The notes: generated from the letters alone by a model not told the origin. 64,000 nt of DNA from Dehalococcoidia bacterium (GCA_034423175.1 DAOUJA010000062.1:64526-128525); one strand, 5' to 3'; positions 9,834 through 60,548 are shown, counted from the first letter of the stretch. Translations and numbers: made by a program.

Positions 9834-10234
9834 TGTTCCTCCTCGATACCGACGTGCTGTCGGCATTCCGCAAGCGCGATCGTAACTCTGGCCTGCTGGG
9901 TTGGATGTCGGTTCAACGGATGTCGGACCTCTACGTAAGCGCGGTGTCGATCGGTGAGATGGAGCGAGGCATAACCCGCCAGCAGCGCCGCAACCCCGAG
10001 TTCGCACAAGTCTTGGCTGCCTGGCTGGATGACCTGCTGACCGTGTATGCCGGACGCATCCTGCCCATCGACCTCGCTGTGGCGCGGCGTTGGGGCATCC
10101 TGTCCGGTGCGCTCGGCTATGACAATACTGACCTGTTCATCGCCGCGACCGCCCTCGAGCACGGCCTGACCGTGGTGACCCGCAACGTCCGCCACTTCGA
10201 GCCCACGGGCGTGCCGGTCCTCAACCCGTTCTAA
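9833..10234 (+). CDS. vapC: PIN-domain toxin VapC
   Basis: MFLLDTDVLS.. at the N-terminus and ..DLFIAATALEHGLTVVTRNVRHF.. at the C-terminus. The ATG overlaps the antitoxin TGA (ATGA junction). Confidence 0.8.
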   Translation: MFLLDTDVLSAFRKRDRNSGLLGWMSVQRMSDLYVSAVSIGEMERGITRQQRRNPEFAQVLAAWLDDLLTVYAGRILPIDLAVARRWGILSGALGYDNTDLFIAATALEHGLTVVTRNVRHFEPTGVPVLNPF

Positions 10235-10243
10235 CGAGCCCTC

Positions 10244-11767
10244 CTACGCCGCCTGCGCCTCCGCGTTGACGCGGTCGAACTGCTCGGTGACATCGGGGGA
10301 GGGTGGCGAGGTGAGCAGGGTGACGACGACGGCGACGGGTATCGCCACGATGAAGCCGGGCGCGCTGGCGATGGCCATGTCGAACACCCCCCATGGGCCA
10401 CCCGAGGTGAACTGGAACACGCTGACCGTCGTCGCTCCCGCCACGATGGCGGCGAGCGCGCCCTGGAAGTTGAACCTGCGCCAGCAGAGCGCGAGGATAG
10501 TCACCGGTCCGAACGAAGCCCCCATGCCGCCCCACGCGTAGGCGACCAGGCTCGCTATCGAGTCCGGCCAGGCGATCGCCAGCACGCCCGAGATACCGCC
10601 GATGACCAGCAGCAGCGTGCGCCCCAGCCACACCCTGCCGGACGCCCACAGCACGCGCACGGGCTCCAGCCGGCGACCGAGCCGCCTGATGAGCGGAACG
10701 TCGTCCGTGGCGATGGCGGAGCCGAGCAGGAGTTGCGAGTCCGCCGTGCTCATGATGGCGGCGACCACGCCCGTGAGCAGCAGGCCGGTGAAGATGGGGT
10801 TGAAGAACGCCTCAGATACCACGAAGTAGACGCGCTCCGGGTCGAAGAGGCTCTCGCCGCCCAGCAGGCCCATCTCCATGAGGGCCGGGCGCGCCACGAT
10901 GCCGAACAGGAACCCGAACGAGAAGATGAGGACGATCCAGGTGACAGCGAAGTTGCGGCTCTGGGTGACCCTCCCCTCGCTCTCTATCGCCATGAAGCGC
11001 TGCAGCACGCGCTGCGACCCGAACGCGCCCAGCCCCCAGCCTGCGGTCGAGAGGACGAACACGGCGGTGATGGTCTCGTTCCCGGCGTCGGTGAACGGGT
11101 TGAGGAACCCCGTCGGCTGTCCTTCCCCACTGAACGGAGAGGTGGTGGTGGAGATGAGCGTGAGCGGCAGGATGATGAAGCACGAGAGCATCACCATCGA
11201 CTGGAACACGTCCGTGCGGGAGACGGCCATGAAGCCGCTGATGAACGTGTACGACGTGACCGCGGCGAGCGTTATCAGCACGCCGGCGTTGTGCTCCAGG
11301 CCGAAGATCGTCCCCAGCAGTTTCGTGCCGCCGATCAGCCCGGAGTTGACGTAGAACATGATGAAGAGGAGCGTCAGGGCTGACGCCACCGTCCGCAGTG
11401 CGCCCGTCGGGTCCCCGAACCGCTTCTCCAGGAAGTCCGGCAGTGTGAGCGATTCCGTTGCTATCGTGTAGCGCCGCAACCGCCTTGCCACGAATGTCCA
11501 GTTGAACCACGCGCCCAGCACGAGGGCCACGAGCGTCCACAGGTGCACGGTGCCCTCGGAGAACGCCAGGGCCGGGAAGACGAGCATCGTCCAGCCGCTG
11601 GTCGTGGACGAACTGGCGCTGAGCGCCGACGTGAAGCTGCTCATCCGCCTGCCGGCGAGCACGTAGTCGGCCATCTCGCGCATCCGCACTGCGCCGACGA
11701 GAGCTATGGCGATCAGCGCGAGGAAGTACGCTGCGAAGACCGCGATGATGACGGGCTGGATCTCCAT
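10244..11767 (-). CDS. sodium:solute symporter family transporter (PutP/PanF-like)
   Basis: 507 aa with about 13 hydrophobic helices and the SSF-type pattern ..GRRMSSFTSALSASSSTTSGW.. Confidence 0.8.
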   Translation of the reverse strand: MEIQPVIIAVFAAYFLALIAIALVGAVRMREMADYVLAGRRMSSFTSALSASSSTTSGWTMLVFPALAFSEGTVHLWTLVALVLGAWFNWTFVARRLRRYTIATESLTLPDFLEKRFGDPTGALRTVASALTLLFIMFYVNSGLIGGTKLLGTIFGLEHNAGVLITLAAVTSYTFISGFMAVSRTDVFQSMVMLSCFIILPLTLISTTTSPFSGEGQPTGFLNPFTDAGNETITAVFVLSTAGWGLGAFGSQRVLQRFMAIESEGRVTQSRNFAVTWIVLIFSFGFLFGIVARPALMEMGLLGGESLFDPERVYFVVSEAFFNPIFTGLLLTGVVAAIMSTADSQLLLGSAIATDDVPLIRRLGRRLEPVRVLWASGRVWLGRTLLLVIGGISGVLAIAWPDSIASLVAYAWGGMGASFGPVTILALCWRRFNFQGALAAIVAGATTVSVFQFTSGGPWGVFDMAIASAPGFIVAIPVAVVVTLLTSPPSPDVTEQFDRVNAEAQAA

Positions 11768-11820
11768 AGTGCAAGCGCACTATAGAAGCGAGATGAACGC
11801 ACTGCCAAGCGGCCGGGAGT

Positions 11821-11925
11821 GTCATTTCGAGTGTAGCCGGGAAATCTCTCGGGGAGACGCCCCGCTGTTGCAGACGCCCCCTGAGAGATGCTTCGACCAC
11901 GCCCTCCGGCTGCGCTCAGCATGAC
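11821..11925. repeat. about 105-bp MITE/REP-like element forming a long imperfect hairpin
   Basis: Begins GTCATTTCGAG and ends CTCAGCATGAC (GTCAT/ATGAC termini). Internal complementary arms are ATCTCTCGGGG / CCCCTGAGAGAT and GTAGCCGG / CCGGCTGC. It lies in a divergent intergenic region. Confidence 0.5.
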
Positions 11926-11951
11926 GCGCTCCCTGTGGTAGTATCCGCGCC

Positions 11952-12719
11952 ATGGCGGACGACGCACAACTGCAGGCGCTGCGCGAGCAGGTGGCGCTGG
12001 CCAACCGGCTGCTGCACCACTACGGCCTCGGCGCGTACCAGGGACACGTGAGCGCGCGCGTGCCGGACTCGGACCTCGTCCTGATCCGCGCGACGCCGTC
12101 CGTGAGCCTCGAGCGCGTCGAGGCAGGCGACCTCATGCTCATCGACCTCGACGGCAACGTCGTGCAGGCGAGCGAGGCCTATCCGGGGCGCGTCGGCTCG
12201 TGGGCGCTCCACACGGAGATCTACAAGGCGCGGCCCGAGGTGAACGCCGTCACGCACACGCACCAGAAGTGGTGCACCGTGTTCGGCCTCGCCGGGCACG
12301 ACGTGCTCCCCGTCATCCACCCGCCGACGGCATCCGTCGCCGCGGAACGGTGGCCGGTCTACACCGGCCCGCCGGACGCCGTCGACTCGCCGGAGAAGGG
12401 TGCCGCGGTCGCCTCGTGGCTCGGCGGCAACGTCGCGTGCCACCTGCGCGGCCACGGCATGGTGTTCGTCGGCACGACGGTCTCGAAGTCGATGCTCGCC
12501 GCCGCCGACGCCGAGGAGCAGGCCGAGCTGACGTGGCGCGCGATGCTCGTCGGCACGCCGGAGTGGATCGAGGAGGAGTATCTCGCGGACGACGTTGCGA
12601 AGCGCTGGGAGCCGCCGAAGCCCGACGTGCGGGACGGCGTCGCCCGCGGCGAGTGGGGCAACCAGGAGTGGCTGGACGCCCACCGCGACTCGGCCTACGT
12701 CCGCCACACGGGGCTGTAG
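11952..12719 (+). CDS. class II aldolase/adducin-family protein
   Basis: ..GHVSARVP....LI..TP....V...DL..IDLDGN.. and ..HTEIY..RP.VNAVTHTHQ.. motifs. Confidence 0.75.
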   Translation: MADDAQLQALREQVALANRLLHHYGLGAYQGHVSARVPDSDLVLIRATPSVSLERVEAGDLMLIDLDGNVVQASEAYPGRVGSWALHTEIYKARPEVNAVTHTHQKWCTVFGLAGHDVLPVIHPPTASVAAERWPVYTGPPDAVDSPEKGAAVASWLGGNVACHLRGHGMVFVGTTVSKSMLAAADAEEQAELTWRAMLVGTPEWIEEEYLADDVAKRWEPPKPDVRDGVARGEWGNQEWLDAHRDSAYVRHTGL

Positions 12720-12721
12720 CC

Positions 12722-13465
12722 ATGACCGACGACGCGCTCGCAGCATTGCGCGAGACGGTGGCCGTCTCCCACCGCCTCCTCTACCTCACCGGCCTCGGCA
12801 CGACGCGCGGGCACACCAGCGCGCGCATCCCGGACACCGACACGTTCTTCATCAAGCCGTGGCCCCACATCCAGATGCACCGCGTCCGCGCCGGGGACCT
12901 CATCGTCATGGACCTGGACGGCAACATCGTCGGCGCCGGCGACCGCCAGATCACGAAGGTCAGCGAGTGGCCGATCCACGCCGAGATCTACCGCACACAC
13001 CCGGACGTCGGCTCCATCATCCACACGCACCAGAAGTGGGCGACGATGATGGGACTCGCGGGCGCGACTATCCTCCCGCTTCTCGACCCCGAGCTCTCCA
13101 CCGCCGTCGCTCACGAGCCGGTCATGTTCGACGAGGACAAGGCGCTGATCCGGAGCGTGGAGCAGGGCAGGGCGGTCTCCGCGCGGATGCAGGGCGCGAA
13201 CGCCTGCCACCTGCAGAACCACGGCATGGTCTTCACCGGCCCGAACGTCGAGACCGCCACGATCGACGCCATCGCGACCGAGCACCTGGCCGAGATGACG
13301 TGGCACGCGAAACTCATCGGCACGCCCGAGGCGATGCCCGAACTCATCCTCCAGCCCCGCCTCGCCCGCCGCTCCGCCGGCGAAGTCTCCGAGGCGTGGG
13401 AGCACTACTGGAAGTGGGTCGACGCCAACCCGGAATCGCTCAGGCCGCGGTCGGCGGATATCTAG
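12722..13465 (+). CDS. class II aldolase/adducin-family protein (paralog)
   Basis: Same motif set (GHTSARIP, HAEIYRTHPDVGSIIHTHQ). The start lies 2 nt after the paralog's stop. Confidence 0.75.
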   Translation: MTDDALAALRETVAVSHRLLYLTGLGTTRGHTSARIPDTDTFFIKPWPHIQMHRVRAGDLIVMDLDGNIVGAGDRQITKVSEWPIHAEIYRTHPDVGSIIHTHQKWATMMGLAGATILPLLDPELSTAVAHEPVMFDEDKALIRSVEQGRAVSARMQGANACHLQNHGMVFTGPNVETATIDAIATEHLAEMTWHAKLIGTPEAMPELILQPRLARRSAGEVSEAWEHYWKWVDANPESLRPRSADI

Positions 13466-13482
13466 GGGGCGCCCTCAACCTC

Positions 13483-13510
13483 GTCATTCCCGCGAAGGCG
13501 GGAATCCAGC
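13483..13510 (+). repeat. REP-like hairpin element (GTCATTCCCGCGAAGGCGGGAATCC type)
   Basis: Stem ATTCCCGC / GCGGGAAT with a 4-nt loop. Related copies lie at 37413, 55309 and 60622 in this window. Confidence 0.5.
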
Positions 13511-13578
13511 GTGGCGGACTACCTGTACTGTAAAGAGGCCACGCCGACGTGGCTGTTGAGCAATAGGAGGAGCGGTTA

Positions 13579-14826
13579 GTGAGGATTCGCATTCACAGGG
13601 GTACGAAGGAGATAGGCGGAACCTGTATCGAAGTGGAAGCGGCCGGGCGCCACATCGCTCTGGACGTGGGTTTACCCTTGGACGCACTCGATGGACAAGC
13701 CGAAACTCTGTTACCCCGTGTTTCGGGTTTCAGGGAGCCTGACGAGAACTTCCTGGGGGTTGTAGTCTCGCACCCGCACCAGGACCACTACGGTCTTGCC
13801 CGGCACCTCCGGCCAGACGTGCCTGTGTACATCGGGCAGAGAGCGCACAATATCCTCAAGGCTGCCAGCCCTTACGTTCCAGGAGGGCATTCCTTCCACA
13901 ACCCGCGCTTCATTGCTGACAGGACCACATCTGAAATAGGGCCGTTTCGAATCACGCCCTACTTGGTCGATCACAGCGCCTTTGACGCCTACGCCCTGCT
14001 GGTCGAAGCCGACGACAAGCGAATCTACTACTCCGGTGATTTTCGGGGACACGGGCGGAAGAGCGGACTATTCGAACGCACGTTGCGGCAACCACCCGCC
14101 GATATCGACGTCCTGCTGATGGAAGGGACGACCATCGGGCGGGTGGGGTCGAGTGAGGGTTTTGCGACCGAGGATGACTTGGAGTGGCAGTTCGTCCAAG
14201 CGTTCCGCGAGACACCGGGCGCCCATCTGGTGTGGACATCGACACAGAACATCGACCGATTGGTCACCGTCTTCCGCGCCGCCAAGCGGACGGGGCGTTA
14301 CTTGATCATTGGTCTATACACCGCGATTGTTCTGGAAGCCACAGGAGGAAGTCGTATCCCCCAATCTGATTGGGAGGGAGTAAAGGTATACATCCCACAC
14401 AGGCAGCGGGTTCATATCAAGGAGAACGGCCTGTTCGACGATCTTCGCCGGCATGTGGTCAACCGCATCTTCCCGGAAGACCTACCCGACCTCAGGGAGC
14501 GAGCCGTCATGCTCTTCACACCCTCGATGATGGGAGACAGGGGAGTTCAGAACGCGCTGGACGGCGCCCATCTCAGCTACTCGATGTGGGAAGGCTATCT
14601 CAAGCAGCTAGGGGCGCAAAGGGTGGCGCGATGGCTGGAGGACCACGAAATCCCATGGCGGACCATCCACACGTCGGGCCACGCCTCAGTCGCCGACCTC
14701 CAGCGATTCGCCAATGCGCTCGCTCCAAAGAAGTTGGTGCCGATTCACTCGTTCGAAACAGGCCGGTTCTCCGAGTTCTTTGATAACGTCATTCAGCAAC
14801 AGGATGGCGTATGGTGGGATGTTTAG
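13579..14826 (+). CDS. metallo-beta-lactamase-fold nuclease, beta-CASP-like
   Basis: MBL motifs LDVG, SHPHQDHYG, DHSAFDA and YSGDF. beta-CASP-like motifs LLMEGTTIG and a C-terminal HTSGHAS. AGGAGG lies upstream of the GTG at 13579. Confidence 0.7.
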   Translation: MRIRIHRGTKEIGGTCIEVEAAGRHIALDVGLPLDALDGQAETLLPRVSGFREPDENFLGVVVSHPHQDHYGLARHLRPDVPVYIGQRAHNILKAASPYVPGGHSFHNPRFIADRTTSEIGPFRITPYLVDHSAFDAYALLVEADDKRIYYSGDFRGHGRKSGLFERTLRQPPADIDVLLMEGTTIGRVGSSEGFATEDDLEWQFVQAFRETPGAHLVWTSTQNIDRLVTVFRAAKRTGRYLIIGLYTAIVLEATGGSRIPQSDWEGVKVYIPHRQRVHIKENGLFDDLRRHVVNRIFPEDLPDLRERAVMLFTPSMMGDRGVQNALDGAHLSYSMWEGYLKQLGAQRVARWLEDHEIPWRTIHTSGHASVADLQRFANALAPKKLVPIHSFETGRFSEFFDNVIQQQDGVWWDV

Positions 14827-30153: not shown

Positions 30154-30383
30154 CTGGAGTTCGTGCTGCCTCGCATTATCACTCTAGCAGTTTCGGCCCG
30201 GGCAGGTCTCCCGCCCCGGCATTTATCGTCGCCGCCTGCAGGGTTGGGTAGGTTGTCATGTTGAGCGAAGCCGGAGGCGGAGTCGAAACATCTCTCACCC
30301 GTCGCCGTTCTTGTCCGTGCTCTGCCCGCGTGCTACGATGCGGCACACCGTTCGTTAGGAATTTCACGAACAAGACGCTGCCC

Positions 30384-30911
30384 ATGACGACCACATCCAG
30401 ACCGCATGGCGCTCACGGCCCCGCATCGTCCGGCTCACTGCGCGAGCGGGCGCGCCGGGCGATCGATGAGCAGCCCTCGCCCACGGTCACGGTGCTCTCG
30501 TCGCTGCTCGCCGCCCAGGACGAGCTGGGCTATCTCCCGTACGAGGCCGTTGACGAGGCTGCACAGCGCACCGGCGCCAGCGTCAACGAAGTCTGGGCCG
30601 TCGCCTCGTTCTACCCCAACTTCCGGTTCACGCCCCCGGCCCGCCATTCCGTGGAGGTCTGCTGGGGGCCGACGTGCCACGTGCTCGGGGCGCAGCCCAT
30701 CCTGCAGGGTCTCGTGGACCACCTCGGGCTCGATGGCGAGGGCGACACGGAGGACGGCAGCGTCTCGCTGAAGTACAACACCTGCCTCGGCGTCTGCCCG
30801 CACGCCCCGGCGATGAGTTTCGATCACGAACTGGCCGGACGCGTGTCCCTCGATGAGGCGGTCAACCGCATCGAGCGCATCAGGGCTGCTGACATGGAGC
30901 GGGAAGCGTGA
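30384..30911 (+). CDS. NuoE-like [2Fe-2S] thioredoxin-fold subunit
   Basis: ..VEVCWGPTCHVLG.. and ..YNTCLGVCPHAPAM.. give the four Cys ligands. Confidence 0.75.
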   Translation: MTTTSRPHGAHGPASSGSLRERARRAIDEQPSPTVTVLSSLLAAQDELGYLPYEAVDEAAQRTGASVNEVWAVASFYPNFRFTPPARHSVEVCWGPTCHVLGAQPILQGLVDHLGLDGEGDTEDGSVSLKYNTCLGVCPHAPAMSFDHELAGRVSLDEAVNRIERIRAADMEREA

Positions 30912-32698
30912 CGGACGCGTATGAGGCTCTGGCGCAGCGTGCCGCGGCGCGGTGGGAAGAACTCCACGCCAGGCCGTGGATACGTATCGGCACGGGGCTC
31001 ATGGGAGAGGCCGTCGGGGCTTTCGAGGTGCTTGCCGCACTGCGGGAAGCCGTCGAACGGGCAGGCGTTGAGGCCGCGATAACCGAGGTAGGCACCACCG
31101 GCCTCTGCTACGCGGAGCCCGTCGTAGACGTGCACGTGCCGGACGGCCCCCGCGTCCTGTACGGCAACGTACGGCCGGAGCAGGTAGAGACCATCGTGCA
31201 GCGACACGTCGTTGCCGGTGAGCCCGTGACCGAATTCGCGCTCGCGAGCGTCGACGTCGACGTGCCCGGTGTCCCGCGCCTGGAAGACCTGCCGATGATG
31301 CGCCGCCAGGTGCGCGTCGCGCTGAGGAACGCAGGGCAGATAGACCCAACCGAGATCGAACAGTACGTCGCGCGCGGCGGCTTCTCCGGCCTGGACAAGG
31401 CGCTCTCATCGCTCACGACGGAGCAGACCCTCGATGAGGTGAAGAACTCCGGCCTGCGCGGCCGCGGCGGGGCGGCGTTCCCGACCGGCATGAAGTGGGG
31501 CTTCCTCGCCGGGAACCCGTCTCCGCAGAAGTACATCCTCTGCAACTGCGAGGAGGGCGACCCTGGAGCGTTCAACGACAAGACCATCCTGGAGTCGGAC
31601 CCGTTCACGCTCGTGGAGGGCTGCATCATCGCGGGCTACGCCACCGGCGCGAGCAACGGCATCGTCTTCATCCGCCACGGGCACGACTCCCCCATCGACC
31701 GCACCCGCGCCGCCATCCGGGCGTGCTACGACAACGGCGTCCTCGGCGGCAGCGTCCTCGGCACGGACTTCTCCTTCGACATGGAGGTCTCCCTCGTCGG
31801 TGAGTCCTACGTCGCGGGCGAGGAGACTGCGCTCATGGAGGCGATAGAGGGCAAGCGCTCCATGCCCCGGTTCCGCCCCCCGTTCCCGGCTGCTTACGGC
31901 GTGTGGGGCAAGCCGTCCAACATCAACAACATCAAGACGCTCAGCTATGCGCCGGAGATCGTCCGCCGGGGCGCGGAGTGGTTCTCGGGCATCGGGACGG
32001 AGAAGAGCAACGGCACGGCCATCGCCTGCCTCTCCGGCGACATCCGCTACCCCGGCCTCGTCGAGGTGCCGTTCGGCCTGACCGTGCGCGACGTCATCGA
32101 GGAGTTGGGCGGCGGCGAGCCGAACGGCAAGGCGCTCAAGTTCCTGCAGACCGGCGGCCCGCTGGGCGGCGTGCTCCCCGCCGGGCAGTTCGACATGGTG
32201 CTGGACTTCGACGAGATGGTCGCGGCCGGCGCCATGTTCGGATCCGGCGGCCTCATCGTCTGTAACGAGGAGCGCTCCGTCGTCGACCTTACGCGCACGC
32301 TCGTCGCGTTCGACCAGATGGAGTCGTGCGGCAAGTGCTTCCCGTGCAGGCTCGGCATGAGCCACATCTTGGAGATACTGGAACGCATCGCGGAGGGCAG
32401 GGGCCGTCCCGGCGACATGGAGCTGATGGAGCGCGTGGGCGTCAACATGCGCGGCGGCTCGCTCTGCGGTCACGGCCAGCTGGGCTACAACCCCGTCGCT
32501 AGCGCGGTGCGCTTTTTCGGCGGCGAGTTCGAGGCGCAGTTCGAAGACGGCGCGGCGTCGCTGGGGAGGTTCGTCGGGCCGAAGTCCACGCGGCGCGGCG
32601 CGCAGATGTCCGGCGACACGCCGACGGCGTCGGTCAAGCCGGACTTCGTGATGCACATCGAGCCGGGCGTCTCGAAGACCGCGGGCAGGGCGGAGTAA
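30908..32698 (+). CDS. NuoF-like NAD(H)/FMN/[4Fe-4S] subunit with an N-terminal thioredoxin-like domain
   Basis: ..GLRGRGGAAFPTG.KW.., ..CNCEEGDPGAF.. and ..ESCGKCFPCR..GSLCGHG.. The start overlaps the nuoE-like stop by 4 nt. Confidence 0.85.
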   Translation: MTDAYEALAQRAAARWEELHARPWIRIGTGLMGEAVGAFEVLAALREAVERAGVEAAITEVGTTGLCYAEPVVDVHVPDGPRVLYGNVRPEQVETIVQRHVVAGEPVTEFALASVDVDVPGVPRLEDLPMMRRQVRVALRNAGQIDPTEIEQYVARGGFSGLDKALSSLTTEQTLDEVKNSGLRGRGGAAFPTGMKWGFLAGNPSPQKYILCNCEEGDPGAFNDKTILESDPFTLVEGCIIAGYATGASNGIVFIRHGHDSPIDRTRAAIRACYDNGVLGGSVLGTDFSFDMEVSLVGESYVAGEETALMEAIEGKRSMPRFRPPFPAAYGVWGKPSNINNIKTLSYAPEIVRRGAEWFSGIGTEKSNGTAIACLSGDIRYPGLVEVPFGLTVRDVIEELGGGEPNGKALKFLQTGGPLGGVLPAGQFDMVLDFDEMVAAGAMFGSGGLIVCNEERSVVDLTRTLVAFDQMESCGKCFPCRLGMSHILEILERIAEGRGRPGDMELMERVGVNMRGGSLCGHGQLGYNPVASAVRFFGGEFEAQFEDGAASLGRFVGPKSTRRGAQMSGDTPTASVKPDFVMHIEPGVSKTAGRAE

Positions 32699-32707
32699 AG
32701 GCTGCAC

Positions 32708-35548
32708 ATGGCGGACGAGATCACGATCACGATAGACGGCCGGGAGGTTACGACGACCCCCGGCAAGATGGTGGTGCAGGCCGCGAACGATGCCGGCATC
32801 TACATCCCCTACCTCTGCTACCACCCCGGCATGAAGCCCTACGGCGCGTGCCGCATGTGCGTGGTGGAGGTCGAAGGCCAGCGCGGTACGCCCGCATCCT
32901 GCACGCTGCCCGTCCGCGACGGCATGGTGGTGAACACGAAGGCCGACGAGGCCGTGCAGGTCCGCAACACCACGCTGGACCTGCTGCTGTCAGAGCATCC
33001 GCACGGGTGCCTCACGTGTCATCGCATAGACCTCTGCGGTCCGCAGGACATCTGCCTCCGCCACGTGGACGTGGTCGACCGGTGCGTCACCTGTCCCAAG
33101 AACGAGCGCTGTGAACTGAAGGACACGACGCGATTCCATACGCAGGAGCTCGTCTCCCCGCTCACGTACCAGTACCGCAACCTGCAGGTGGAGACGAAGG
33201 ACCCCTTCTACGACCGCGACTACAACCTCTGCATCGTCTGCGCCCGTTGCACGCGGGCGTGCGACGAGCTGCGCGGCGACGTCGCGATAGGCATGACGGA
33301 GCGCGCGGGACAGGTGCTCGTCGGCACGGTGATGGGCGATTCGCTCCTCGAGTCGGGCTGCGAGTTCTGCGGGGCGTGCATCGACGTCTGTCCCGTGGGC
33401 GCGCTGACCGAGACCTCGTACAAGTGGGAGCGTCCGGCGCGCACCGAGCAGTCCGTCTGCGCCGAGTGTCCCGTCGGCTGCACGATGACCTACGAGGTCA
33501 ACCACTGGGAGCGCGTCGTGCGGGCCGTGCCCGAACTGAACGCTCCCGCGAACATGGGGCAGGCGTGCTTCAAGGGCAAGTTCGGGTTCGAGTACGTCAA
33601 CGACCGGCGCCGCATCCGGAAGCCGCTCGTGCGCCGGGATGGCGAGCTGCGGGAGGCGACGTGGGACGAGGCGGTCGCCGCCGCCGCGGAAGGCCTTGCG
33701 CGGCACAAGGGACCCGCGTTCGCGCTGATGGCCAGTCCCCGCAACACGAACGAGGAGCTCTACGCCGCCCAGAAGTTCGCGCGCGCCGTGATGGGCTCCA
33801 ACAGCGTCGACGTCGCGTCGAACGACCGCCCCGGCATCGTCGAGGGACTGCAGGACGTCTTCGGCTACTTCGCCGGGACGATGAGCACGTGGGAGCTCGC
33901 CGACTCCGCCGCCGTGATGGTGGTGAGCGCGAACCTCACGGAGGAGCAGAACGTCGTCGGCGTGCCTATCAAGCGCGCCGTCCGCGCCGGGACCCAACAG
34001 CTCATCGTCATCGACTCGCGCGAGGTCGAGCTCACGCGGTACGCGACCATCTGGCTCAGGCCGTACCCCGGCACGGACCCCGTGCTTCTCGGCGGGCTGC
34101 TCCGCGCCATCGTAGATGCCGGACTGGTCGACGTGGACGCGGTGCGCGAGCGCGCCGACGGCTGGGATGAGCTGCTCGCCTGCCTCGGTCCGTTCACACC
34201 GGACGCGGTCGCCGTCGAGACCGGCGTGCCTGCGGCAAGCATCGAGCAGGCGGCGCGCATCTACGCGGAGTCGGGCCCCGCGGCGCTGCTGTTCGGCGGC
34301 GACAGCTCGATAGGAGGCTCGCGCCGCACGCTCTCGCGGCTGGCTGCCGCGCTCGCGATCGCCACGGGGAACGTGGGCAGGCGCGGCGCGGGCGTTCTGC
34401 CGCTCTACCAGGGAGCGAACGGGCAGGGTGCGATGGACATGGGCGTCTGGCCCGCCGCGATGCCCGGCCACAACCTCATCCAGGAATCGCCGGAGGCCCG
34501 CGAGGCACTCGGCGCGCTCTGGGGCGCTCCGGTGCCGCTCGAAGGCGGCTCCGGCAACCGACACATGTTCGACCGGGCCCGCGAGGGCGCGGTCAAGGCG
34601 ATGCTCGTTCTGGGCGACCACGTCCACTACGAGGACGGAACGCTCGGCGACGTGCCCGGCGCGCTCGACGCGCTGGAATTCCTCGTCGCGACCAGCGCGT
34701 TCCCCTCCGCGGTGACTGAGCGTGCGGACGTGGTCTTTCCGGCCGGGGTCTGGGCAGAGAAGACGGGCACGTACACGAACGTCGAACGGCGCGTGCAGCC
34801 GCTCCGCAAGGTGACGAAGAACAAGCGCGTGGAGTCCAGGAGCGACCTCGATGTCGTGTGCGCCATCGCGGGCGCCATGGGAGCGCAGGGCTTCTCATGG
34901 GACGGCCCTCCCCAGGTGCTGGACGAGATAGCGCAGGCCGTAGCCGAGTACGCGGGCATCTCCTGGGAGCGCCTGCTGCGCGAGCGGCTGGAGATCGTGG
35001 CCACCCCCACCGGCGAGCCGCAGCCGACGCAGGTTATGTACACCGGCAACGTCCTCACCGGCCTCCAGTGGCCGTGCACGTCTGAGAGCGTACCGGACGA
35101 TGCAGGACTCTTCGTGGACCGGTTCCGGCACGGCAAGGCGAAACTGCAGCCGGTGGCGTGGCACCCGCGTCCGGAGGCTGACCGGCAGTTCCCGCTCATG
35201 CTCGCTCATGGACGGGTGCTTCTGGAGCCGGGCCGCAAGCCGAACGTGAAGGTGGAAGGCAAGCGCAACCGCGTCGAGCGAGAGGAGCGCTTCGTGCTCA
35301 ACCCCACGGACGCGGCTGCCGCCAGGCTCAGCGAGGGAGATGCGGCAGCGGTGACGACGGCGGACGGCGCTGAGCGGCGCGGCGTGGTCGCGCTCTCGGA
35401 CGCCGTGCCTCGGGGCGTGGTGTCGCTGACGACCCTCTTCGGAGAGCTCGCCGTCGAGGTTGATGCATCGGACCGTCCGGACCCCATGAACCATATCCCG
35501 CGGTTGAACGCCGTGCCCGCTCGTATCGCGGCTGCACGGTCGGAGTGA
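32708..35548 (+). CDS. FdhA/NuoG-like Fe-S plus molybdopterin-oxidoreductase-fold subunit, apparently lacking the catalytic Cys/Sec
   Basis: N-terminal 2Fe-2S motif (CYHPGMKPYGACRMCVVEV), a His-ligated cluster (HPHGCLTCH), two ferredoxin 4Fe-4S motifs, and the CAECPVGCTM cluster, followed by a large MopB-type domain. Confidence 0.8.
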   Translation: MADEITITIDGREVTTTPGKMVVQAANDAGIYIPYLCYHPGMKPYGACRMCVVEVEGQRGTPASCTLPVRDGMVVNTKADEAVQVRNTTLDLLLSEHPHGCLTCHRIDLCGPQDICLRHVDVVDRCVTCPKNERCELKDTTRFHTQELVSPLTYQYRNLQVETKDPFYDRDYNLCIVCARCTRACDELRGDVAIGMTERAGQVLVGTVMGDSLLESGCEFCGACIDVCPVGALTETSYKWERPARTEQSVCAECPVGCTMTYEVNHWERVVRAVPELNAPANMGQACFKGKFGFEYVNDRRRIRKPLVRRDGELREATWDEAVAAAAEGLARHKGPAFALMASPRNTNEELYAAQKFARAVMGSNSVDVASNDRPGIVEGLQDVFGYFAGTMSTWELADSAAVMVVSANLTEEQNVVGVPIKRAVRAGTQQLIVIDSREVELTRYATIWLRPYPGTDPVLLGGLLRAIVDAGLVDVDAVRERADGWDELLACLGPFTPDAVAVETGVPAASIEQAARIYAESGPAALLFGGDSSIGGSRRTLSRLAAALAIATGNVGRRGAGVLPLYQGANGQGAMDMGVWPAAMPGHNLIQESPEAREALGALWGAPVPLEGGSGNRHMFDRAREGAVKAMLVLGDHVHYEDGTLGDVPGALDALEFLVATSAFPSAVTERADVVFPAGVWAEKTGTYTNVERRVQPLRKVTKNKRVESRSDLDVVCAIAGAMGAQGFSWDGPPQVLDEIAQAVAEYAGISWERLLRERLEIVATPTGEPQPTQVMYTGNVLTGLQWPCTSESVPDDAGLFVDRFRHGKAKLQPVAWHPRPEADRQFPLMLAHGRVLLEPGRKPNVKVEGKRNRVEREERFVLNPTDAAAARLSEGDAAAVTTADGAERRGVVALSDAVPRGVVSLTTLFGELAVEVDASDRPDPMNHIPRLNAVPARIAAARSE

Positions 35549-36886: not shown

Positions 36887-39529
36887 GTGGCCAGCCCCGT
36901 CCGCAAGCAGTATCTGGAAATCAAGTCGCGCTACCCGGATGCGCTGCTCCTGTACCGCATGGGCGACTTCTACGAGACGTTCGACGAGGACGCCCGGCTC
37001 GCCGCGCGCGACCTCGAGATAGTCCTCACCCAGCGGGACATCGGACAGGGGGAGGTTGTCCCGCTCGCGGGAATCCCCTACCACGCGCTGGACAGCTACC
37101 TCGCAAAGCTCGTCCGCAAGGGCCACCGCGTCGCCATCGCCGAGCAGACGAGCGAGCCGGACGGCAGGACGCTCGTGAGCAGGGACGTCGTCCGCGTCGT
37201 GACTCCTGGCACGGTCATCGAGCCGGGGATGCTGGACTCCGGCGCGAACAACTACCTCGTTGCCGTCGCGCAGGGGGGCGCCCAGTCCGGCATCGCGTTC
37301 GTGGACATCACCACCGGCGAGTTCGCCGTCACACAGCTGCCCACCGGCGCGGTCCCGCAGGAGATCGCGCGCCTCGCCCCTTCTGAGCTGCTCCTTGCGG
37401 ATGGGGGCGAGGTTCCTGCCTTCGCAGGAATGACGGGAGGGGCAGGAATGACGGCAGGGGCAGGAACGACGGCAGGGGCGGGAATGACGGACTGCCACGT
37501 GACCCGGCTGAACGGGGCGAGCTTCGCGCCGAATGCCGCGCGGCGCCGCGTGCTGGACCACTTCGGCGTGCGCTCCCTCGACGCCTTCGGCTGCGAGGGG
37601 CTGGAGTTTGCGACCACGGCGGCAGCCGTCGTGCTCGACTACGTCGGCAAGACGCACATGGCCGTGCTCCCGCAACTGACCGGTCTTCGGACGTACTCGA
37701 CCGACGCCTTCATGGCGCTCGACCCGCAGACCCGTCGCAACCTGGAACTGTTCGAAGGGGGCCGCTGGGGAGCGAAGGGCCAGTCGCTGCTGAGCGTGCT
37801 CGACTGTACCGCCACGCCGATGGGCGCGCGGACGCTCCGCCGCTGGCTCGGCCAGCCGCTCCTCGACCTCGACGCGCTCGAGCGCCGCCTGGACGCCGTC
37901 GCGTGGCTGCACGCCTCGGACGTGCGCAGACAGCGGGTACGGACTGAACTGGCGGAGGTGTCGGACCTGGAGCGGGCGCTGCAGCGCGTCGGAACGGGCG
38001 TCGCCTTCCCGCGTGAGCTTGTGGGGCTGCGCCGCTCGCTGGAGCGTGTCCCGGCGCTGCGCACTCTGACAGGGGAAGCAGGGTCCGGGTTGTCGTGGCT
38101 CACGTCGGAGCTTGACCCCTGCACGAGCGCCGTCGAGCGCATACGGACGGCCATAGCCGACGACCCCCAGGGCGACGTGGGGCAGGGCAGGGTCGTCCGT
38201 GAAGGCTATGCGGAGGAGATGGACGAAGTGCGGATGGCCGCACAGGACGCTCGCTCCTACATCGCGGGACTGGAGCGGAAGGAGCGCGAGCGCACCGGCA
38301 TCCCCAACCTCAAGGTCGGCTACAACAAGGTGTTCGGCTACTACCTGGAGGTCTCCAACGCCCACAGCGCGAGCGTGCCGGACGACTACGTCCGCCGCCA
38401 GACACTCGTCAACGCGGAGCGCTTCTACACGCAGGAGCTGAAAGAACACGAGAACCGCGTGCTCAGCGCGGGCGACCGGCTGCAGGAGTTGGAGACGGCC
38501 GTCTACAAGCAGGTCTGTCGCGACGTCGCAGCGCACGCGTCGGAGATACTCGCGACCGCTGCGGCGCTGGGCACGCTGGACGCGCTCCTCGCGCTCGCCG
38601 AGTCCGCTGTCCGCTACGGCTACCTGCGCCCCGCCCTCGACGAGGGCGAGCGGCTCGTGCTCCGCGACGCCCGCCACCCCGTCGTGGAACGCTTCCTCCC
38701 CAGCGGCGCGTTCGTCCCGAACGACGCCGACCTTTCGACCGATGAGAACCAGCTGGTGATACTCACCGGCCCGAACATGGCGGGCAAGTCCACCTACCTT
38801 CGGCAGGTGGCCGTCGCCGTCCTGATGGCGCAGATAGGCTCGTTCGTTCCCGCGGCCGAGGCGCACGTGGGACTGGTCGACCGCATCTTCACGCGCGTCG
38901 GCCTGCAGGACGACCTCGCGAGCGGGCAGTCCACGTTCATGGTCGAGATGGTCGAGACCGCCGCGATACTCCACCATGCGACGCGGCGCTCGCTCGTCAT
39001 CCTGGACGAGATCGGGCGCGGCACCTCGACGTTCGACGGGCTCTCCATCGCGCAGGCCGTGGCGGAGCACATCCATAACGCGCCCCGTCTCGGCTGTCGC
39101 ACGCTGTTCGCCACGCATTACCACGAACTGACTGCGCTGGCAGACCGCCTGCCGCGCGTCCGCAATCTGAGCGTCGCGGTGTCCGACCGCGACGGCGACG
39201 TGGTCTTCCTGCATCGCATCGTCCAGGGCGGAGCGGACCGGAGCTACGGCGTGCACGTGGCGCAACTCGCCGGGCTGCCGAGGCCGCTCATCACTCGCGC
39301 ACGAGAGCTGCTCACGGAGCACGAAGGCATGCCTGTGACAGGCCGCACCCGCGGCAGGCGACCGCTGCCGGGCGCGCCGCCCCAGAGTGCGATGCCGCTG
39401 TTCGGCGGTCTCCCTCCGGAGGCCTCGCGCATCCTCGCCGAGCTGCGGGAACTCGACCTCGAGAACCTCACGCCGCGGCAGGCGCTGGACAAACTGGCGG
39501 AGCTGCAGGAGTGGGCGGAAGAGGGATGA
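36887..39529 (+). CDS. mutS: DNA mismatch repair protein MutS
   Basis: N-terminal ..YLEIKSRYPDALLLYRMGDFYETF.. (mismatch-binding Phe-x-Glu), Walker A GPNMAGKST, and ..STF.VEM.E.. GTG start. Confidence 0.9.
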   Translation: MASPVRKQYLEIKSRYPDALLLYRMGDFYETFDEDARLAARDLEIVLTQRDIGQGEVVPLAGIPYHALDSYLAKLVRKGHRVAIAEQTSEPDGRTLVSRDVVRVVTPGTVIEPGMLDSGANNYLVAVAQGGAQSGIAFVDITTGEFAVTQLPTGAVPQEIARLAPSELLLADGGEVPAFAGMTGGAGMTAGAGTTAGAGMTDCHVTRLNGASFAPNAARRRVLDHFGVRSLDAFGCEGLEFATTAAAVVLDYVGKTHMAVLPQLTGLRTYSTDAFMALDPQTRRNLELFEGGRWGAKGQSLLSVLDCTATPMGARTLRRWLGQPLLDLDALERRLDAVAWLHASDVRRQRVRTELAEVSDLERALQRVGTGVAFPRELVGLRRSLERVPALRTLTGEAGSGLSWLTSELDPCTSAVERIRTAIADDPQGDVGQGRVVREGYAEEMDEVRMAAQDARSYIAGLERKERERTGIPNLKVGYNKVFGYYLEVSNAHSASVPDDYVRRQTLVNAERFYTQELKEHENRVLSAGDRLQELETAVYKQVCRDVAAHASEILATAAALGTLDALLALAESAVRYGYLRPALDEGERLVLRDARHPVVERFLPSGAFVPNDADLSTDENQLVILTGPNMAGKSTYLRQVAVAVLMAQIGSFVPAAEAHVGLVDRIFTRVGLQDDLASGQSTFMVEMVETAAILHHATRRSLVILDEIGRGTSTFDGLSIAQAVAEHIHNAPRLGCRTLFATHYHELTALADRLPRVRNLSVAVSDRDGDVVFLHRIVQGGADRSYGVHVAQLAGLPRPLITRARELLTEHEGMPVTGRTRGRRPLPGAPPQSAMPLFGGLPPEASRILAELRELDLENLTPRQALDKLAELQEWAEEG
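37413..37490 (+). repeat. REP-like hairpin plus about 3.7 units of an 18-bp tandem repeat, in frame inside mutS
   Basis: Hairpin TTCCTGC-CTTC-GCAGGAA at 37413-37430. Units GCAGGAATGACGG(G/C)AGGG at 37424, 37442, 37460 and 37478 encode AGMTGG AGMTAG AGTTAG AGMTD. Confidence 0.8.
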
Positions 39530-40398
39530 CGCAGTATGAGTCCAGTGTCTTCGTGGACGGGAACAACGTCATGGGCTCACGTCCGGACGGGTGGTGGCGT
39601 GACCGCGCCGCGGCTGCGCAGCGCCTCATCGCCGACCTTGCGTCCCTCGGGCGCGGCCCTGCGCACTGGACCGTCGTGTTCGACGGCCCGCCACCCGTGG
39701 AGGCGCCGCGCTCCGCGGGTGCCCTCACCGTGGAGTACGTCCGGGGACGCGGCGCCGACGCCGCGGATGACCGCATCGTCGAGCTGCTCGACGCGTTGCC
39801 TCCCGGCATGGACGCGCTGGTGTACACGTCCGACCGCCGGTTGCGCGAACGCGCGGCAGCGCTCGGTGCGCGGGTCGAGGGAGCGAGCGCCCTGTTGCGG
39901 GCGATAGCGGAGGCAGACATGAACGAGACGGCAACCTGGGGAGAGTTCGAGGCGGCGTCGCCGGAGCTGGCGCAACTGGGGCGGGGGCTGTTCGACGAGA
40001 CCGGACTGGTGATGCTGGGAACGTTACGCAGGGACGGCTTCCCGCGCGTCAGCCCCGTGGAGTTCTTCATCTTCGCCGGCGAGATCTACCTCGGTATGAT
40101 CTGGCGGTCCTACAAGGCGCAGGACCTGCAACGCGACCCCCGGTGCATGGTGATGAACACGGTGCACGACCGGCAACTGCCGGATGGCGAGTTCAAGCTG
40201 ACGGGCATCGCAACCGAGGTCACCGGCGAGGCCGAGCGCCAGGCGTGGGCAATGGCGCTCCTGGAGCACATGGGCTGGTCGCCGGAGGACGATGACGACG
40301 AGCCGTACAACCTGTTCAAGATAGGCATCGTCACCGCCTCGTTCGCCAGGATAGAGAACAACGACTGGTTCCGCCTCTTCTGGCGCGCCGGAGCATGA
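39526..40398 (+). CDS. NYN/YacP-like domain fused to a PNPOx-like (pyridoxamine 5'-phosphate oxidase family) domain
   Basis: N-terminal ..VFVDGNNVMGSRPDGWW.. and ..DDRIVELL.. (YacP-like). C-terminal ..GTLRRDGFPRVSPVEF.. with a split-barrel pattern. The ATG overlaps the mutS TGA. Confidence 0.5.
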   Translation: MTQYESSVFVDGNNVMGSRPDGWWRDRAAAAQRLIADLASLGRGPAHWTVVFDGPPPVEAPRSAGALTVEYVRGRGADAADDRIVELLDALPPGMDALVYTSDRRLRERAAALGARVEGASALLRAIAEADMNETATWGEFEAASPELAQLGRGLFDETGLVMLGTLRRDGFPRVSPVEFFIFAGEIYLGMIWRSYKAQDLQRDPRCMVMNTVHDRQLPDGEFKLTGIATEVTGEAERQAWAMALLEHMGWSPEDDDDEPYNLFKIGIVTASFARIENNDWFRLFWRAGA

Positions 40399-40465
40399 GG
40401 CGAGGCATGCGCGAGAAGGTTAGAATGGCCGCGCTGCGACGGGAACGAGCGAGGGAGGTGCAGCG

Positions 40466-41263
40466 ATGGTGAGCGAGGCTGAGCGCTCAGGGGCTGACGG
40501 CGCCACGGCATTGAGCGTGACGGAGCAATTCTCACTCCACCCGGAGATGGACGAGCCGGAGGAGTTCCTCGGCGGGCCGTACAACCTCTCGGTGTGGCAG
40601 CCGAAGGACGCCGAACACCGGCACTTCCAGCAGCACGCGCCGAAGGCCGGCGAGCCGATGCCGGACTTCACGCTGCCCGTGCTGGACGGTGGGGAGCTGA
40701 CGCTGTCGTCGCTGCGCGGCAAGCCGGTGATGATCGAGTTCGGCTCCGTCACCTGACCACCATGCGTGGCGGAGTCTCCGCTCATGAAGGACCTTGCGAG
40801 CAGGTACGCGGACGACGCGCACTTCCTGTTCATCTACACGCGGGAGGCGCATCCCGGCGAGCACTACCCGCCCATCCACTACTACGAGCAGAAGCTCCTG
40901 CATGCACGATCGTTCCGGGAGCGGCTGGGCATCAACCGCACGATACTCGTGGACTCGGTGCAGGGCAGGGTGCACCGCATGTTCGGCGGCGTGTCGAACA
41001 TGTCGTGGATCGTGGACCACACCGGGCGCGTCGCCTATCGGGCGGCGTGGACGGTGGCTGACGACATCGAGCGCGCCCTGGGCGAGGTGCTGCGGGCGCG
41101 GATGCTGAAGCGCGAGGGCCAGCCCGCCGCGGTCTTCTACCGGGAGATGGTGGGGCTGCGGCCGGCGAACGAGGGGCCGCCGCACGGGCTGCCGCGGTTC
41201 ATGGGCGGCGACGTCGCCGCGCGGCAGTTCGCCGATGCGCGGCACCGGACGGAGCGGGCGTAA
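40466..41263 (+). CDS. thioredoxin-fold, iodothyronine-deiodinase-like protein with in-frame TGA (candidate selenocysteine) at 40754-40756
   Basis: ORFs 40466-40756 and 40766-41263 share one frame. Read-through gives ..IEFGSVT-U-PPCVAES..HFLFIYTREAHPGEHY.. GAGGGAGG lies upstream of the ATG at 40466. Confidence 0.6.
40761..40786 (+). promoter_or_regulatory. SECIS-like stem-loop downstream of UGA 40754
   Basis: CATG (40761-40764) pairs with CATG (40783-40786), and GCGG (40769-40772) pairs with CCGC (40778-40781). The apical loop AGUCU sits about 17-21 nt after the UGA. Confidence 0.45.
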
Positions 41264-41273
41264 GGCGGAGAGC

Positions 41274-41651
41274 ATGCCGATCTACGAGTTCAGGTGCAAC
41301 GCATGCGGCGCGAAGTCTTCCGCGTTCTTCCGGTCCATGAACACGGATGCCGCCGTGGCCTGCGGGCGCTGCGGCAGCGCGGATACGCGGCGGCTGTTCT
41401 CCACGTTCAAGACGAAGATGCAGCGTCCCGGCCCGGACCAATTCAACAAGGCGGAGCTGTTGGACGGCGTCGACTACACCAACCCTGCTTCGATGGCGAA
41501 CTTCTTCCGCAAGATGGGCACCGCCTTCGACGACGAGCCGAACGAACACATGGACGAGATCGTCGGCAGGCTCGACCACGGCGAGCCGGTGCACAAGGCG
41601 CTGAAGCTCGACATGGATGGTCACTCGCACGGACCGGCGGCTGACGAGTAG
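41274..41651 (+). CDS. FmdB-family zinc-ribbon protein
   Basis: MPIYEFRCNACG...CGRCGS is the CxxC...CxxC zinc-ribbon signature of the FmdB family. Confidence 0.7.
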   Translation: MPIYEFRCNACGAKSSAFFRSMNTDAAVACGRCGSADTRRLFSTFKTKMQRPGPDQFNKAELLDGVDYTNPASMANFFRKMGTAFDDEPNEHMDEIVGRLDHGEPVHKALKLDMDGHSHGPAADE

Positions 41652-59723: not shown

Positions 59724-60548
59724 ATGGCCGACTATCCCCGGAACGACCTGCTCGTCGAGACCGAATGGCTCGCCGAGCACCTGACTGACCCGAACGTACG
59801 CGTGATCGAGATGGCGCAGGACGGCAGCGACTTCGAGGCCGGACACATCCCCGGCGCGGCGCTCTCGCCCACGTGGCAGATCAAGGGCTCGGAGCGGACG
59901 AGGCTCGTCGCGCCGCCGGACGAGGCGAAGGCGTGGTTCGAGTCCGTCGGCATCGGCGACGATACGCTGGTCGTCGGGTACGACCGCTTCCACAGCCGGG
60001 ACGCGTCGCGGCTCTGGTGGGTGCTCAGCTACTACGGCCACACCAACGTCCGCGTGCTGAACGGCGGATGGACGAAATGGACGGCGGAAGGGCGCGACGT
60101 CGAGACAGGCGCGTCCACCGTCGCGGGCGGGGACGTGACGTTCACGCCGCAGCCGCCGGACCACTCCATCGAGTCGGACGTGGACAAGCTCAAGGCCGCC
60201 ATCGGCGCGGACGACGCCGTCATCTGGGACGTGCGGACGGAGGACGAGTACACGGGAGCGAACTCGCGCGGCAACGCGCGGACGGGGCACGTGCCCGGCG
60301 CGGCGTTCCTGGAGTGGGTGAACCTCGTGGCGGAGGACGACACGTTCAAGTCCGCGGCGGAGATCGAGGAGATCGCCCGAGGGCTCGGCATCACGCCGGA
60401 GAAGCAGGTGCACGTCTACTGACAGGGCGGGGTGCGTGCGTCGCACGCCATGCTCGCCCTCAAGCTCATCGGCCACGAGTCCGTCTGCATGTACGACGGC
60501 TCGATGGGAGAGTGGGCGAACCGCGACGATACGCCCCTGGAGGAATAG
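59724..60548 (+). CDS. two-domain rhodanese sulfurtransferase with in-frame TGA (candidate selenocysteine) at the catalytic-Cys position, 60420-60422
   Basis: The N-terminal domain ..VETEWLAEHL.DPNVRVIE.. is followed by a catalytic domain that reads ..QVHVY-U-QGGVRASHAMLALKLIGHESVCMYDGSMGEWA.. when read through to TAG 60546-60548. GGAGG lies upstream of the ATG. Confidence 0.6.
60425..60459 (+). promoter_or_regulatory. SECIS-like stem-loop downstream of UGA 60420
   Basis: Outer stem GGGCG (60425-60429) / CGCCC (60455-60459). Inner stem GTGCG (60432-60436) / CGCAC (60442-60446). Apical loop UGCGU. Confidence 0.45.

Follow-up and report, generated by a model that had tools for sequence, protein, structure and literature searches.

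Within a 64-kb stretch of DNA from a Dehalococcoidia bacterium (GCA_034423175.1 DAOUJA010000062.1:64526-128525; the whole stretch is called the window below), positions 40466-41263 form one gene that is interrupted by an in-frame TGA. We consider it very likely that this gene encodes a soluble, cytoplasmic, deiodinase-like selenoprotein of 265 residues, in which the UGA is decoded as selenocysteine (Sec). The UGA is conserved in related loci, Cys occupies its position in more distant homologues, a covarying hairpin follows it, and the protein shares sequence kinship and catalytic residues with the deiodinases. The features of the locus are as follows, where nt stands for nucleotides and SECIS for selenocysteine insertion sequence.

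40453-40458 (+): Shine-Dalgarno sequence GGGAGG, read from the sequence, 7 nt 5' of the ATG at 40466
40466-41263 (+): complete coding sequence of the predicted deiodinase-like selenoprotein, 265 codons including Sec97, with the stop codon TAA at 41261-41263
40739-40753 (+): active-site strand F92-G-S94-V-T96 before Sec; aligns with FGSCTC of Dio3 (4tr3), and its Ser and Thr are the predicted equivalents of deiodinase proton-relay residues
40754-40756 (+): UGA, predicted to be read as Sec97; TGA in 80/80 related loci, Cys in distant full-length homologues
40761-40786 (+): predicted SECIS hairpin, with core stem 40768-40773 / 40777-40782, loop GUC at 40774-40776 and lower stem CAUG/CAUG at 40761-40764 / 40783-40786
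40763-40765 (+): TGC codon of Cys100, the putative resolving partner in U-P-P-C; invariant in 80/80
40835-40855 (+): Y124-T-R-E127-A-H129-P130 block, equivalent of the deiodinase (Y)I-x-EAHP; aligns with IYIEEAHP of Dio3, with Tyr, Glu and His in the presumed relay
41048-41260 (+): family-specific C-terminal extension of ~70 residues (...FYRE..GLR...GG..A..F...), conserved in orthologues

The open reading frames (ORFs) 40466-40756 and 40766-41263 share a frame, and the TGA at 40754-40756 is the sole stop between them. Reading through it gives the product ...KPVMIEFGSVT-U-PPCVAESPLMKDLASRYADDAHFLFIYTREAHPGEHYPP..., exactly as quoted in the original prediction. That prediction had taken the ORF pair to be a single deiodinase-like gene of the thioredoxin fold with a TGA in its redox motif, and the shared frame, the profile searches and the presence of the TGA in 80/80 loci all agree with it. 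The G+C content of third codon positions (GC3) is 0.96-0.97 5' of the TGA and 0.86-0.87 3' of it, in the same frame. Because this bias is kept on either side, both flanks of the TGA appear to be coding.

A scan with one genome per species yielded 586 relatives, and codon counts were taken from the 80 best loci, which are 36-92% identical to the window protein. All 80 have TGA where the window has 40754-40756, and none of these closest loci has Cys in the Sec column. The fold does not end naturally at the TGA, since the upstream half is conserved in frame in every one of them. The motif around the TGA is EFGS-x-(T/S)-U-(P/A)-(P/Y/F)-C in 80/80, and the clade as a whole has the signature EFGS-x-T-U-P-(P/Y)-C ... 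Y-x-REAHPGE ... NM(S/T)(W/Y) ... WT ... (F/Y)Y(R/x)E. The loci span at least eight phyla and include independently assembled complete chromosomes and one cultured isolate. Among the groups represented are Dehalococcoidia/SAR202, Chloroflexia, Thermomicrobiales, Ktedonobacteria, Delta- and Alphaproteobacteria, Verrucomicrobia, Acidobacteria, Actinobacteria (including the cultured Haloechinothrix aidingensis), Rokubacteria and Bacillota. More distant full-length homologues (P0046-P0078; e.g., P0046-P0057, P0059 and P0077) have Cys in the Sec column. Their motifs FGSCTCPPF, FGSVTCLQC and FGNFTCGPF align at the TGA, which settles the check for Cys homologues that had been proposed.

This pattern bears directly on the idea that the gene is a pseudogene or a product of sequencing error, i.e., a former Cys gene with a nonsense mutation. 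An in-frame stop does look like a fresh mutation of this kind, and TGC becomes TGA by one base change. However, the same TGA recurs in 80/80 loci, among them the complete chromosomes and the cultured isolate, purifying selection is apparent on both sides of it (the GC3 bias and the invariant catalytic residues), and the hairpin shows selection at the RNA level. We regard this explanation as excluded for practical purposes, because the TGA is universal among these loci and the distant homologues have Cys, and would assign it only a minute probability. On one SAR202 contig (QEVV01000003.1, SAR202-VII-2) there are two Sec-containing paralogues ~45 kb apart (L026 and L031), with 54% and 50% identity to the window protein and a TGA in each.

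A different concern arises from existing annotation. Public protein collections hold the gene as two products on one 710,759-bp contig, one of 96 residues (P0283; 40466-40753) and one of 159 residues (P0241; 40784-41260). GenBank orthologues (e.g., MDE2838966.1, MCY4448189.1 and MYA51508.1) are named 'hypothetical protein'. The best ~45 protein-database matches are 150-176 residues long and start at a Met just after the UxxC; these records are short because gene callers cut every orthologue at the same place. It could therefore be supposed that there are two separate small genes, with a 96-residue product ending at the TGA (40756) and a 159-residue product starting from the ATG at 40784, since gene callers give just such products for this contig and for all orthologues. 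This ATG also has a GGAG 10 nt upstream. In this respect the original prediction needs correction: it allowed the downstream ORF only a GTG start (40766) lacking a ribosome-binding site, whereas the ATG is also present and is the start that public gene callers use. Nonetheless, two genes would require that one thioredoxin-fold domain be cut between strand beta-1 and the active-site helix. The two halves are adjacent, in frame and parted by a TGA and no other stop in 80/80 loci from many phyla, the full-length Cys homologues are single proteins, and the GGAG belongs to the covarying hairpin. We therefore consider the two-gene explanation exceedingly unlikely.

The core stem of the hairpin has 6 base pairs (bp) and begins 12 nt after the UGA, and the GUC loop lies 17 nt after it. 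The stem reaches 8 bp in many relatives, and the lower CAUG/CAUG stem is present in the window gene's own clade. We analyzed pairing in an ungapped alignment of 74 distinct orthologous sequences, covering the UGA and 42 nt, in which the two strands of the hairpin occupy columns 13-20 and 24-31 and enclose a loop of 3 nt (columns 21-23). From clade to clade the stem changes in sequence with pairing kept (GGCGGA/UCCGCU, GCUGGC/GCCAGC, GGAUGG/CCAUCC and GCAGAG/CUCUGC). Paired cells amount to 81.9%, versus 64.4% in shuffles, and cells in which both bases have changed number 130, versus 53 ± 8 in shuffles and at most 36 in slid controls; in both comparisons 0/500 shuffles reach the observed value. 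RNAalifold recovers only 4 of the 8 pairs from this alignment, and the explicit pair count is more informative. The first loop base, G21 (G40774 in the window), is invariant in 74/74 sequences despite being at a third codon position (Ala GCG in 39/39, Glu GAG in 34/34). Control codons do vary: a Glu 15 nt further on is GAA in 31 and GAG in 26, and a nearby Ala uses four codons. The hairpin that had been described as SECIS-like is thus real, has the GUC loop and is conserved in orthologues through compensatory changes.

The position of the loop is also that of a known element. With the U of the UGA as nt 1, the fdhF SECIS of Escherichia coli has its loop G at nt 22-23; the loop of the window hairpin starts at nt 21 on the same count and so matches this spacing. 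Of the 1,498 TGA triplets in the window, only 3 are followed by a stem of 6 bp or more whose loop is 3 nt long, contains G and starts at nt 21, and two of these three are the candidate Sec codons. A covariance model built from the family's hairpins (R1) scores the window site at 49.7 bits, although the same site was used in building the model. R1 finds only its own site in the window and misses the second SECIS candidate described below; it is family-specific because the coding sequence dominates the model. On these comparative sequence grounds, we classify the hairpin as a bacterial SECIS.

The second candidate Sec codon lies in a gene for a rhodanese-related sulfurtransferase (59724-60548, +), with its TGA (60420-60422) at the catalytic Cys, in the catalytic loop (HVY-U-QGGVRAS). 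The hairpin at 60434-60448 (GCGUGC-GUC-GCACGC) is identical in geometry to 40768-40782: in both genes 14 nt precede a 6-bp stem, GUC forms the loop at nt 21-23, and the return strand follows. This confirms the earlier claim that the window holds two independent cases of a TGA at a redox Cys. The rhodanese-related sulfurtransferase is already among the listed selenoprotein families (UxxG). The window is syntenic with L002-L013 at ~88% nucleotide identity, and one of these loci (L009) keeps both the rhodanese TGA and its hairpin. It had been argued that such a pair of genes favors Sec decoding over two pseudogenes; this interpretation is supported by the conservation, by the SECIS elements and by the ordinary use of TGA as a stop elsewhere in the window.

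This last point concerns the possibility that UGA is recoded but not to Sec, either by genome-wide reassignment to Trp or Gly or by near-cognate read-through with Cys or Trp. UGA reassignment does exist in some bacteria, and the Sec machinery is not seen in the window. However, 12 other confident genes in the window, mutS among them, end in TGA as a normal stop, and UGA is therefore not reassigned across the genome. Coding bias flanks just two TGAs in the 64 kb on either side (40754-40756 and 60420-60422); both are at a redox catalytic Cys and both are followed by a SECIS-type hairpin. In addition, tRNA-Sec, selA and selB adjoin an orthologue in the cultured actinobacterium H. aidingensis. We judge recoding to another amino acid to be very unlikely.

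The proposed check for Sec machinery shows such genes near orthologues and in the lineage, and none within the window. In H. aidingensis (L069; NZ_JACCKD010000001.1), selB, selA and tRNA-Sec are within 3.5 kb of the orthologue. An ortholog-proximal selA occurs in a Dehalococcoidia genome (L024), selD is near the orthologue in L063, and SelA is common in metagenome-assembled genomes (MAGs) of SAR202 and Dehalococcoidia. Given the two SECIS-bearing genes and these relatives, the window organism is presumably competent for Sec incorporation. The arrangement in H. aidingensis is compact: directly downstream of the orthologue, whose TGA is at 9998, the minus strand carries selB (11286-12305), selA (12350-13573) and tRNA-Sec (13639-13731), together spanning 11286-13731. 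This cultured organism would be a convenient experimental system for the deiodinase-like family.

We then considered what the protein is. Profile searches, as suggested earlier, were run on the read-through protein with Cys in place of the stop. Among Pfam families, matches above cut-off were AhpC-TSA (46 bits, cut-off 26; residues 62-191), Redoxin (41.8 bits) and T4_deiodinase (PF00837; 39.1 bits, cut-off 27), the last covering only profile positions 76-151 of 237. When the single window sequence is compared with solved structures, TlpA-like thioredoxins, Dio3 (4tr3) and Dio2 (9h48) are about equal. A profile of the family separates them: among PDB structures it ranks Dio3 first, with a match to the entire catalytic domain at E = 8.6e-29, and Dio2 follows at 1.6e-22, compared to E = 1.7e-12 for the best TlpA-like structure, which is matched in its N-terminal half only. 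As a proxy for the fold, we used a model of the closest full-length Cys homologue (P0046), which is 35% identical to the window protein and has a mean predicted local distance difference test (pLDDT) score of 71. Its confident core has a thioredoxin fold of the TlpA/peroxiredoxin (Prx) type. We conclude from these searches that the fold is generic and that it is the sequence that ties the protein to deiodinases in particular, since the profile discriminates between the groups and the fold search does not.

The conserved residues point to the deiodinase active site. Invariant in 80/80 are E91, G93, S94, U97, C100, F122, Y124, R126, E127, A128, H129, P130, K143, A147, R158, D163, G167, N178, W195 and T196; F92 is present in 79/80, position 96 is Thr in 75 and Ser in 5, and almost all 80 orthologues have a His at 136-138. 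The proton relay of the deiodinases consists, in Dio2, of Ser127, Thr129, Tyr157, Glu160, His162 and His182 (PMC11592359). By alignment, S94, T96, Y124, E127, H129 and the His at 136-138 are the equivalents of these residues. The FGS-x-T-(U/C)-P-P and EAHP blocks, in which a resemblance to deiodinases was first noticed, align with FGSCTC and IYIEEAHP of Dio3.

Compared to the animal deiodinases DIO1-3 (Dio3, 4TR3/4TR4; Dio2, 9H48), the window protein shares the FGS-x-T-U-P-P strand, Y-x-x-EAHP, the second His in the insertion, the Prx-like thioredoxin fold and the catalytic Sec. However, there are several differences. The window protein is without the N-terminal membrane anchor: its first 60 residues, which are acidic and polar, contain no hydrophobic stretch, and no signal peptide or membrane anchor is seen there, from which we predict a cytoplasmic location. 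At U+3 it has an invariant Cys where deiodinases have Phe. A ~9-residue gap after EAHPGE makes its loop-D shorter, so that it is without the thyronine-contacting Trp and Asp (Trp207, Asp211), and position 179, which corresponds to Arg275 of the Arg275/Lys clamp of Dio3, is Met in 79/80. It also has the extra C-terminal extension of ~70 residues, which is absent from deiodinases and from TlpA/ResA proteins alike; E227 and G248 in this extension are conserved in 79/80 and 78/80 orthologues, respectively, and the equivalent region of the P0046 model is of low confidence. Finally, its SECIS is of the bacterial type and within the coding sequence, whereas that of deiodinases is in the 3' untranslated region. 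To judge from the aligned residues, the kinship with deiodinases extends to the catalytic core and not to thyroid-hormone recognition, and thyroid hormone is not an expected substrate.

The gene is a typical member of a known family, and in this sense the finding is an ordinary one. In 2005, Zhang, Fomenko & Gladyshev found a new family of bacterial selenoproteins in the Sargasso Sea, the 'deiodinase-like protein' (Pfam00837), with Sec and Cys forms and bacterial SECIS elements, and suggested a redox function (Genome Biol 6:R37, PMC1088965). A study of Global Ocean Sampling (GOS) data counted 22 Sec and 21 Cys deiodinase-like sequences (PMC2398784), and reviews of 2022 and 2026 list the family with a UxxC motif (PMC9312934, PMC13188914). 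Compared by its described features, the 2005 family agrees with the window gene in the T4_deiodinase match, the UxxC with Sec first, a SECIS immediately 3' of the UGA whose small apical loop contains G, the Cys homologues and the marine-bacterial origin; we see no defining difference. What the present analysis adds is a taxonomic range of at least eight phyla, with Dehalococcoidia/SAR202 prominent, a quantified covariation of the SECIS, a list of invariant residues and the observation that each such gene is divided into two hypothetical proteins in public records.

Two other groups of proteins invite comparison. The read-through protein scores under the cut-off of every NCBIfam model; the best match is NF038285, 'deiodinase family protein' (deiodinase_rel), at 88.6 bits, far under the 250-bit cut-off. 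The NF038285 proteins, of which many are from Planctomycetes and have EF-hands, share FG(S/N)-x-T-C and YVREAHP with the window protein. They differ in being Cys forms with no resolving Cys at +3 (C-G-P-F), in keeping the Arg (PNRLY) and in having long N-terminal EF-hand regions. The TlpA/ResA/DsbE oxidoreductases and the Prx- or thioredoxin-like UxxC selenoproteins have the same fold and carry their redox pair, with the x-x spacing, where helix alpha-1 begins. However, TlpA/ResA/DsbE-type proteins are usually exported or membrane-anchored and have WCxxC, whereas the window protein is predicted to be cytoplasmic, has the deiodinase relay and, by profile, is closer to deiodinases (E = 1e-28 vs 1e-12).

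The following mechanism would accommodate these features. The UGA at 40754-40756 would be read as Sec, with the hairpin acting as a SECIS that brings SelB with Sec-tRNA(Sec) to the ribosome. In the resulting protein, Sec97 would be placed at the start of helix alpha-1 in a peroxiredoxin/TlpA-like thioredoxin fold, with Cys100 one helical turn on, and would be ringed by a Ser-Thr-Tyr-Glu-His-His relay as in animal deiodinases. The selenolate of Sec97 could then attack an electrophile, which may be the oxygen of a peroxide or a ring-bound halogen of an aromatic compound. Cys100 would resolve the Se-OH or Se-X species so formed to an internal selenenylsulfide, and a thioredoxin-type reductant would regenerate the enzyme. 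As to the substrate, we give a somewhat better than even chance to generic peroxide or thiol-disulfide redox chemistry and a chance of less than one in five to the reductive dehalogenation of a small halogenated aromatic; the rest falls to other reactions.

It is worth considering the dehalogenase alternative further. It holds that the enzyme is a true reductive dehalogenase and not a peroxide or thiol-disulfide redox enzyme: small halogenated phenolics would lose I or Br as in the deiodinase reaction, and Cys100 would recycle the selenenyl halide. In the profile comparison the solved deiodinases are much nearer than any other structure, and the whole of their proton relay (Ser, Thr, Tyr, Glu, His, His) is kept. 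The record names of several closely related MAGs (SB0664_bin, RHO1_bin) are ones that we take to denote sponge-derived material, and sponges are rich in bromotyrosine compounds. All 80 closest loci have Sec and none has Cys, as expected if sulfur cannot substitute, and Sec forms are as frequent as Cys forms in the GOS counts given above (22 and 21; PMC2398784). However, the neighborhoods of the loci hold no conserved halogen-metabolism genes, the substrate-recognition elements of deiodinases are missing, and UxxC is typical of thiol-disulfide oxidoreductases; the 2005 authors expected a generic redox role (PMC1088965). In addition, the deiodinase homologue of Dictyostelium was ruled out as the dechlorinase of differentiation-inducing factor (DIF). 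Overall, we consider a dehalogenase function unlikely. A broader proposal is that the Sec-only clade (at least 80 species-level genomes in at least eight phyla) is a cofactor-free, Se-dependent reductive dehalogenase of natural iodinated or brominated phenolics and not a generic redox protein, and thereby the bacterial ancestor of thyroid-hormone deiodination chemistry. We think this improbable; if true, it would constitute a second, corrinoid-independent dehalogenation route in Dehalococcoidia.

Several observations weigh against our interpretation of the gene as a deiodinase-like selenoprotein. None of selA, selB, selC and selD is within the 64-kb window, and the Sec competence of the organism is thus deduced from its two SECIS-bearing genes and its relatives. 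The window hairpin alone is no more stable than shuffled sequence (z = 0.57), and Rfam at gathering thresholds gives one tRNA-Lys and no SECIS family in the window. The significance of the hairpin lies instead in the comparison with relatives and in its exact geometry, not in single-sequence stability. With respect to the kinship with deiodinases, the N-terminal half of the family profile consists of the window sequence and about ten Cys homologues. The P0046 model is nearer in fold to ResA/TlpA (template-modelling (TM) score 0.86, Foldseek) than to Dio3 (TM 0.69); the deiodinases Dio3 and Dio2 come at ranks 26-29 of the fold matches. Also missing are the parts of deiodinases that bind thyronine: loop-D is ~9 residues shorter and Met takes the place of Arg275. 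Lastly, the gene neighborhood gives no hint of the substrate: synteny holds only among close Dehalococcoidia, and there is no conserved functional partner.

With a selenoprotein as the favored reading, the main practical value of the result is the correction of annotation, as the selenoproteomes of SAR202/Dehalococcoidia and of many soil and marine MAGs would be under-counted. The deiodinase-like family is also the closest bacterial relative of the thyroid-hormone deiodinases, with the catalytic relay kept and its closest members exclusively Sec. Identification of the substrate would reveal the purpose that deiodinase chemistry served when thyroid hormones did not yet exist.

The neighbors of the gene in the window include a fusion of NYN and pyridoxamine-5'-phosphate-oxidase-like (PNPOx) domains, an FmdB-type zinc ribbon, an amidohydrolase and a GFO/IDH/MocA oxidoreductase. 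The FmdB-type zinc-ribbon gene (41274-41651, +; Pfam Zn_ribbon_8, 48 bits) begins 11 nt past the selenoprotein stop and is probably co-transcribed with it. The upstream neighbor (39511-40398, +) is the fusion, an unusual one that joins a YacP-like NYN nuclease domain to the PNPOx part; its conservation is confined to 24 closely related loci. The only neighbor that recurs outside the close Dehalococcoidia clade is an ATPase of an ABC transporter with CBS domains (e.g., L031, 12929-14191, -). It is encoded ~1-2 kb or less from the selenoprotein gene in 14 loci, of which 11 are from distant lineages.

Further upstream in the window, a same-strand ORF cluster (30258-35548, +) ends with a molybdopterin oxidoreductase of 946 residues (32708-35548). 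This protein has 2Fe-2S, 4Fe-4S and NuoG-like domains and resembles an alpha subunit of formate dehydrogenase. Among bacterial selenoproteins FdhA is the commonest, yet the gene at 32708-35548 contains no in-frame TGA.

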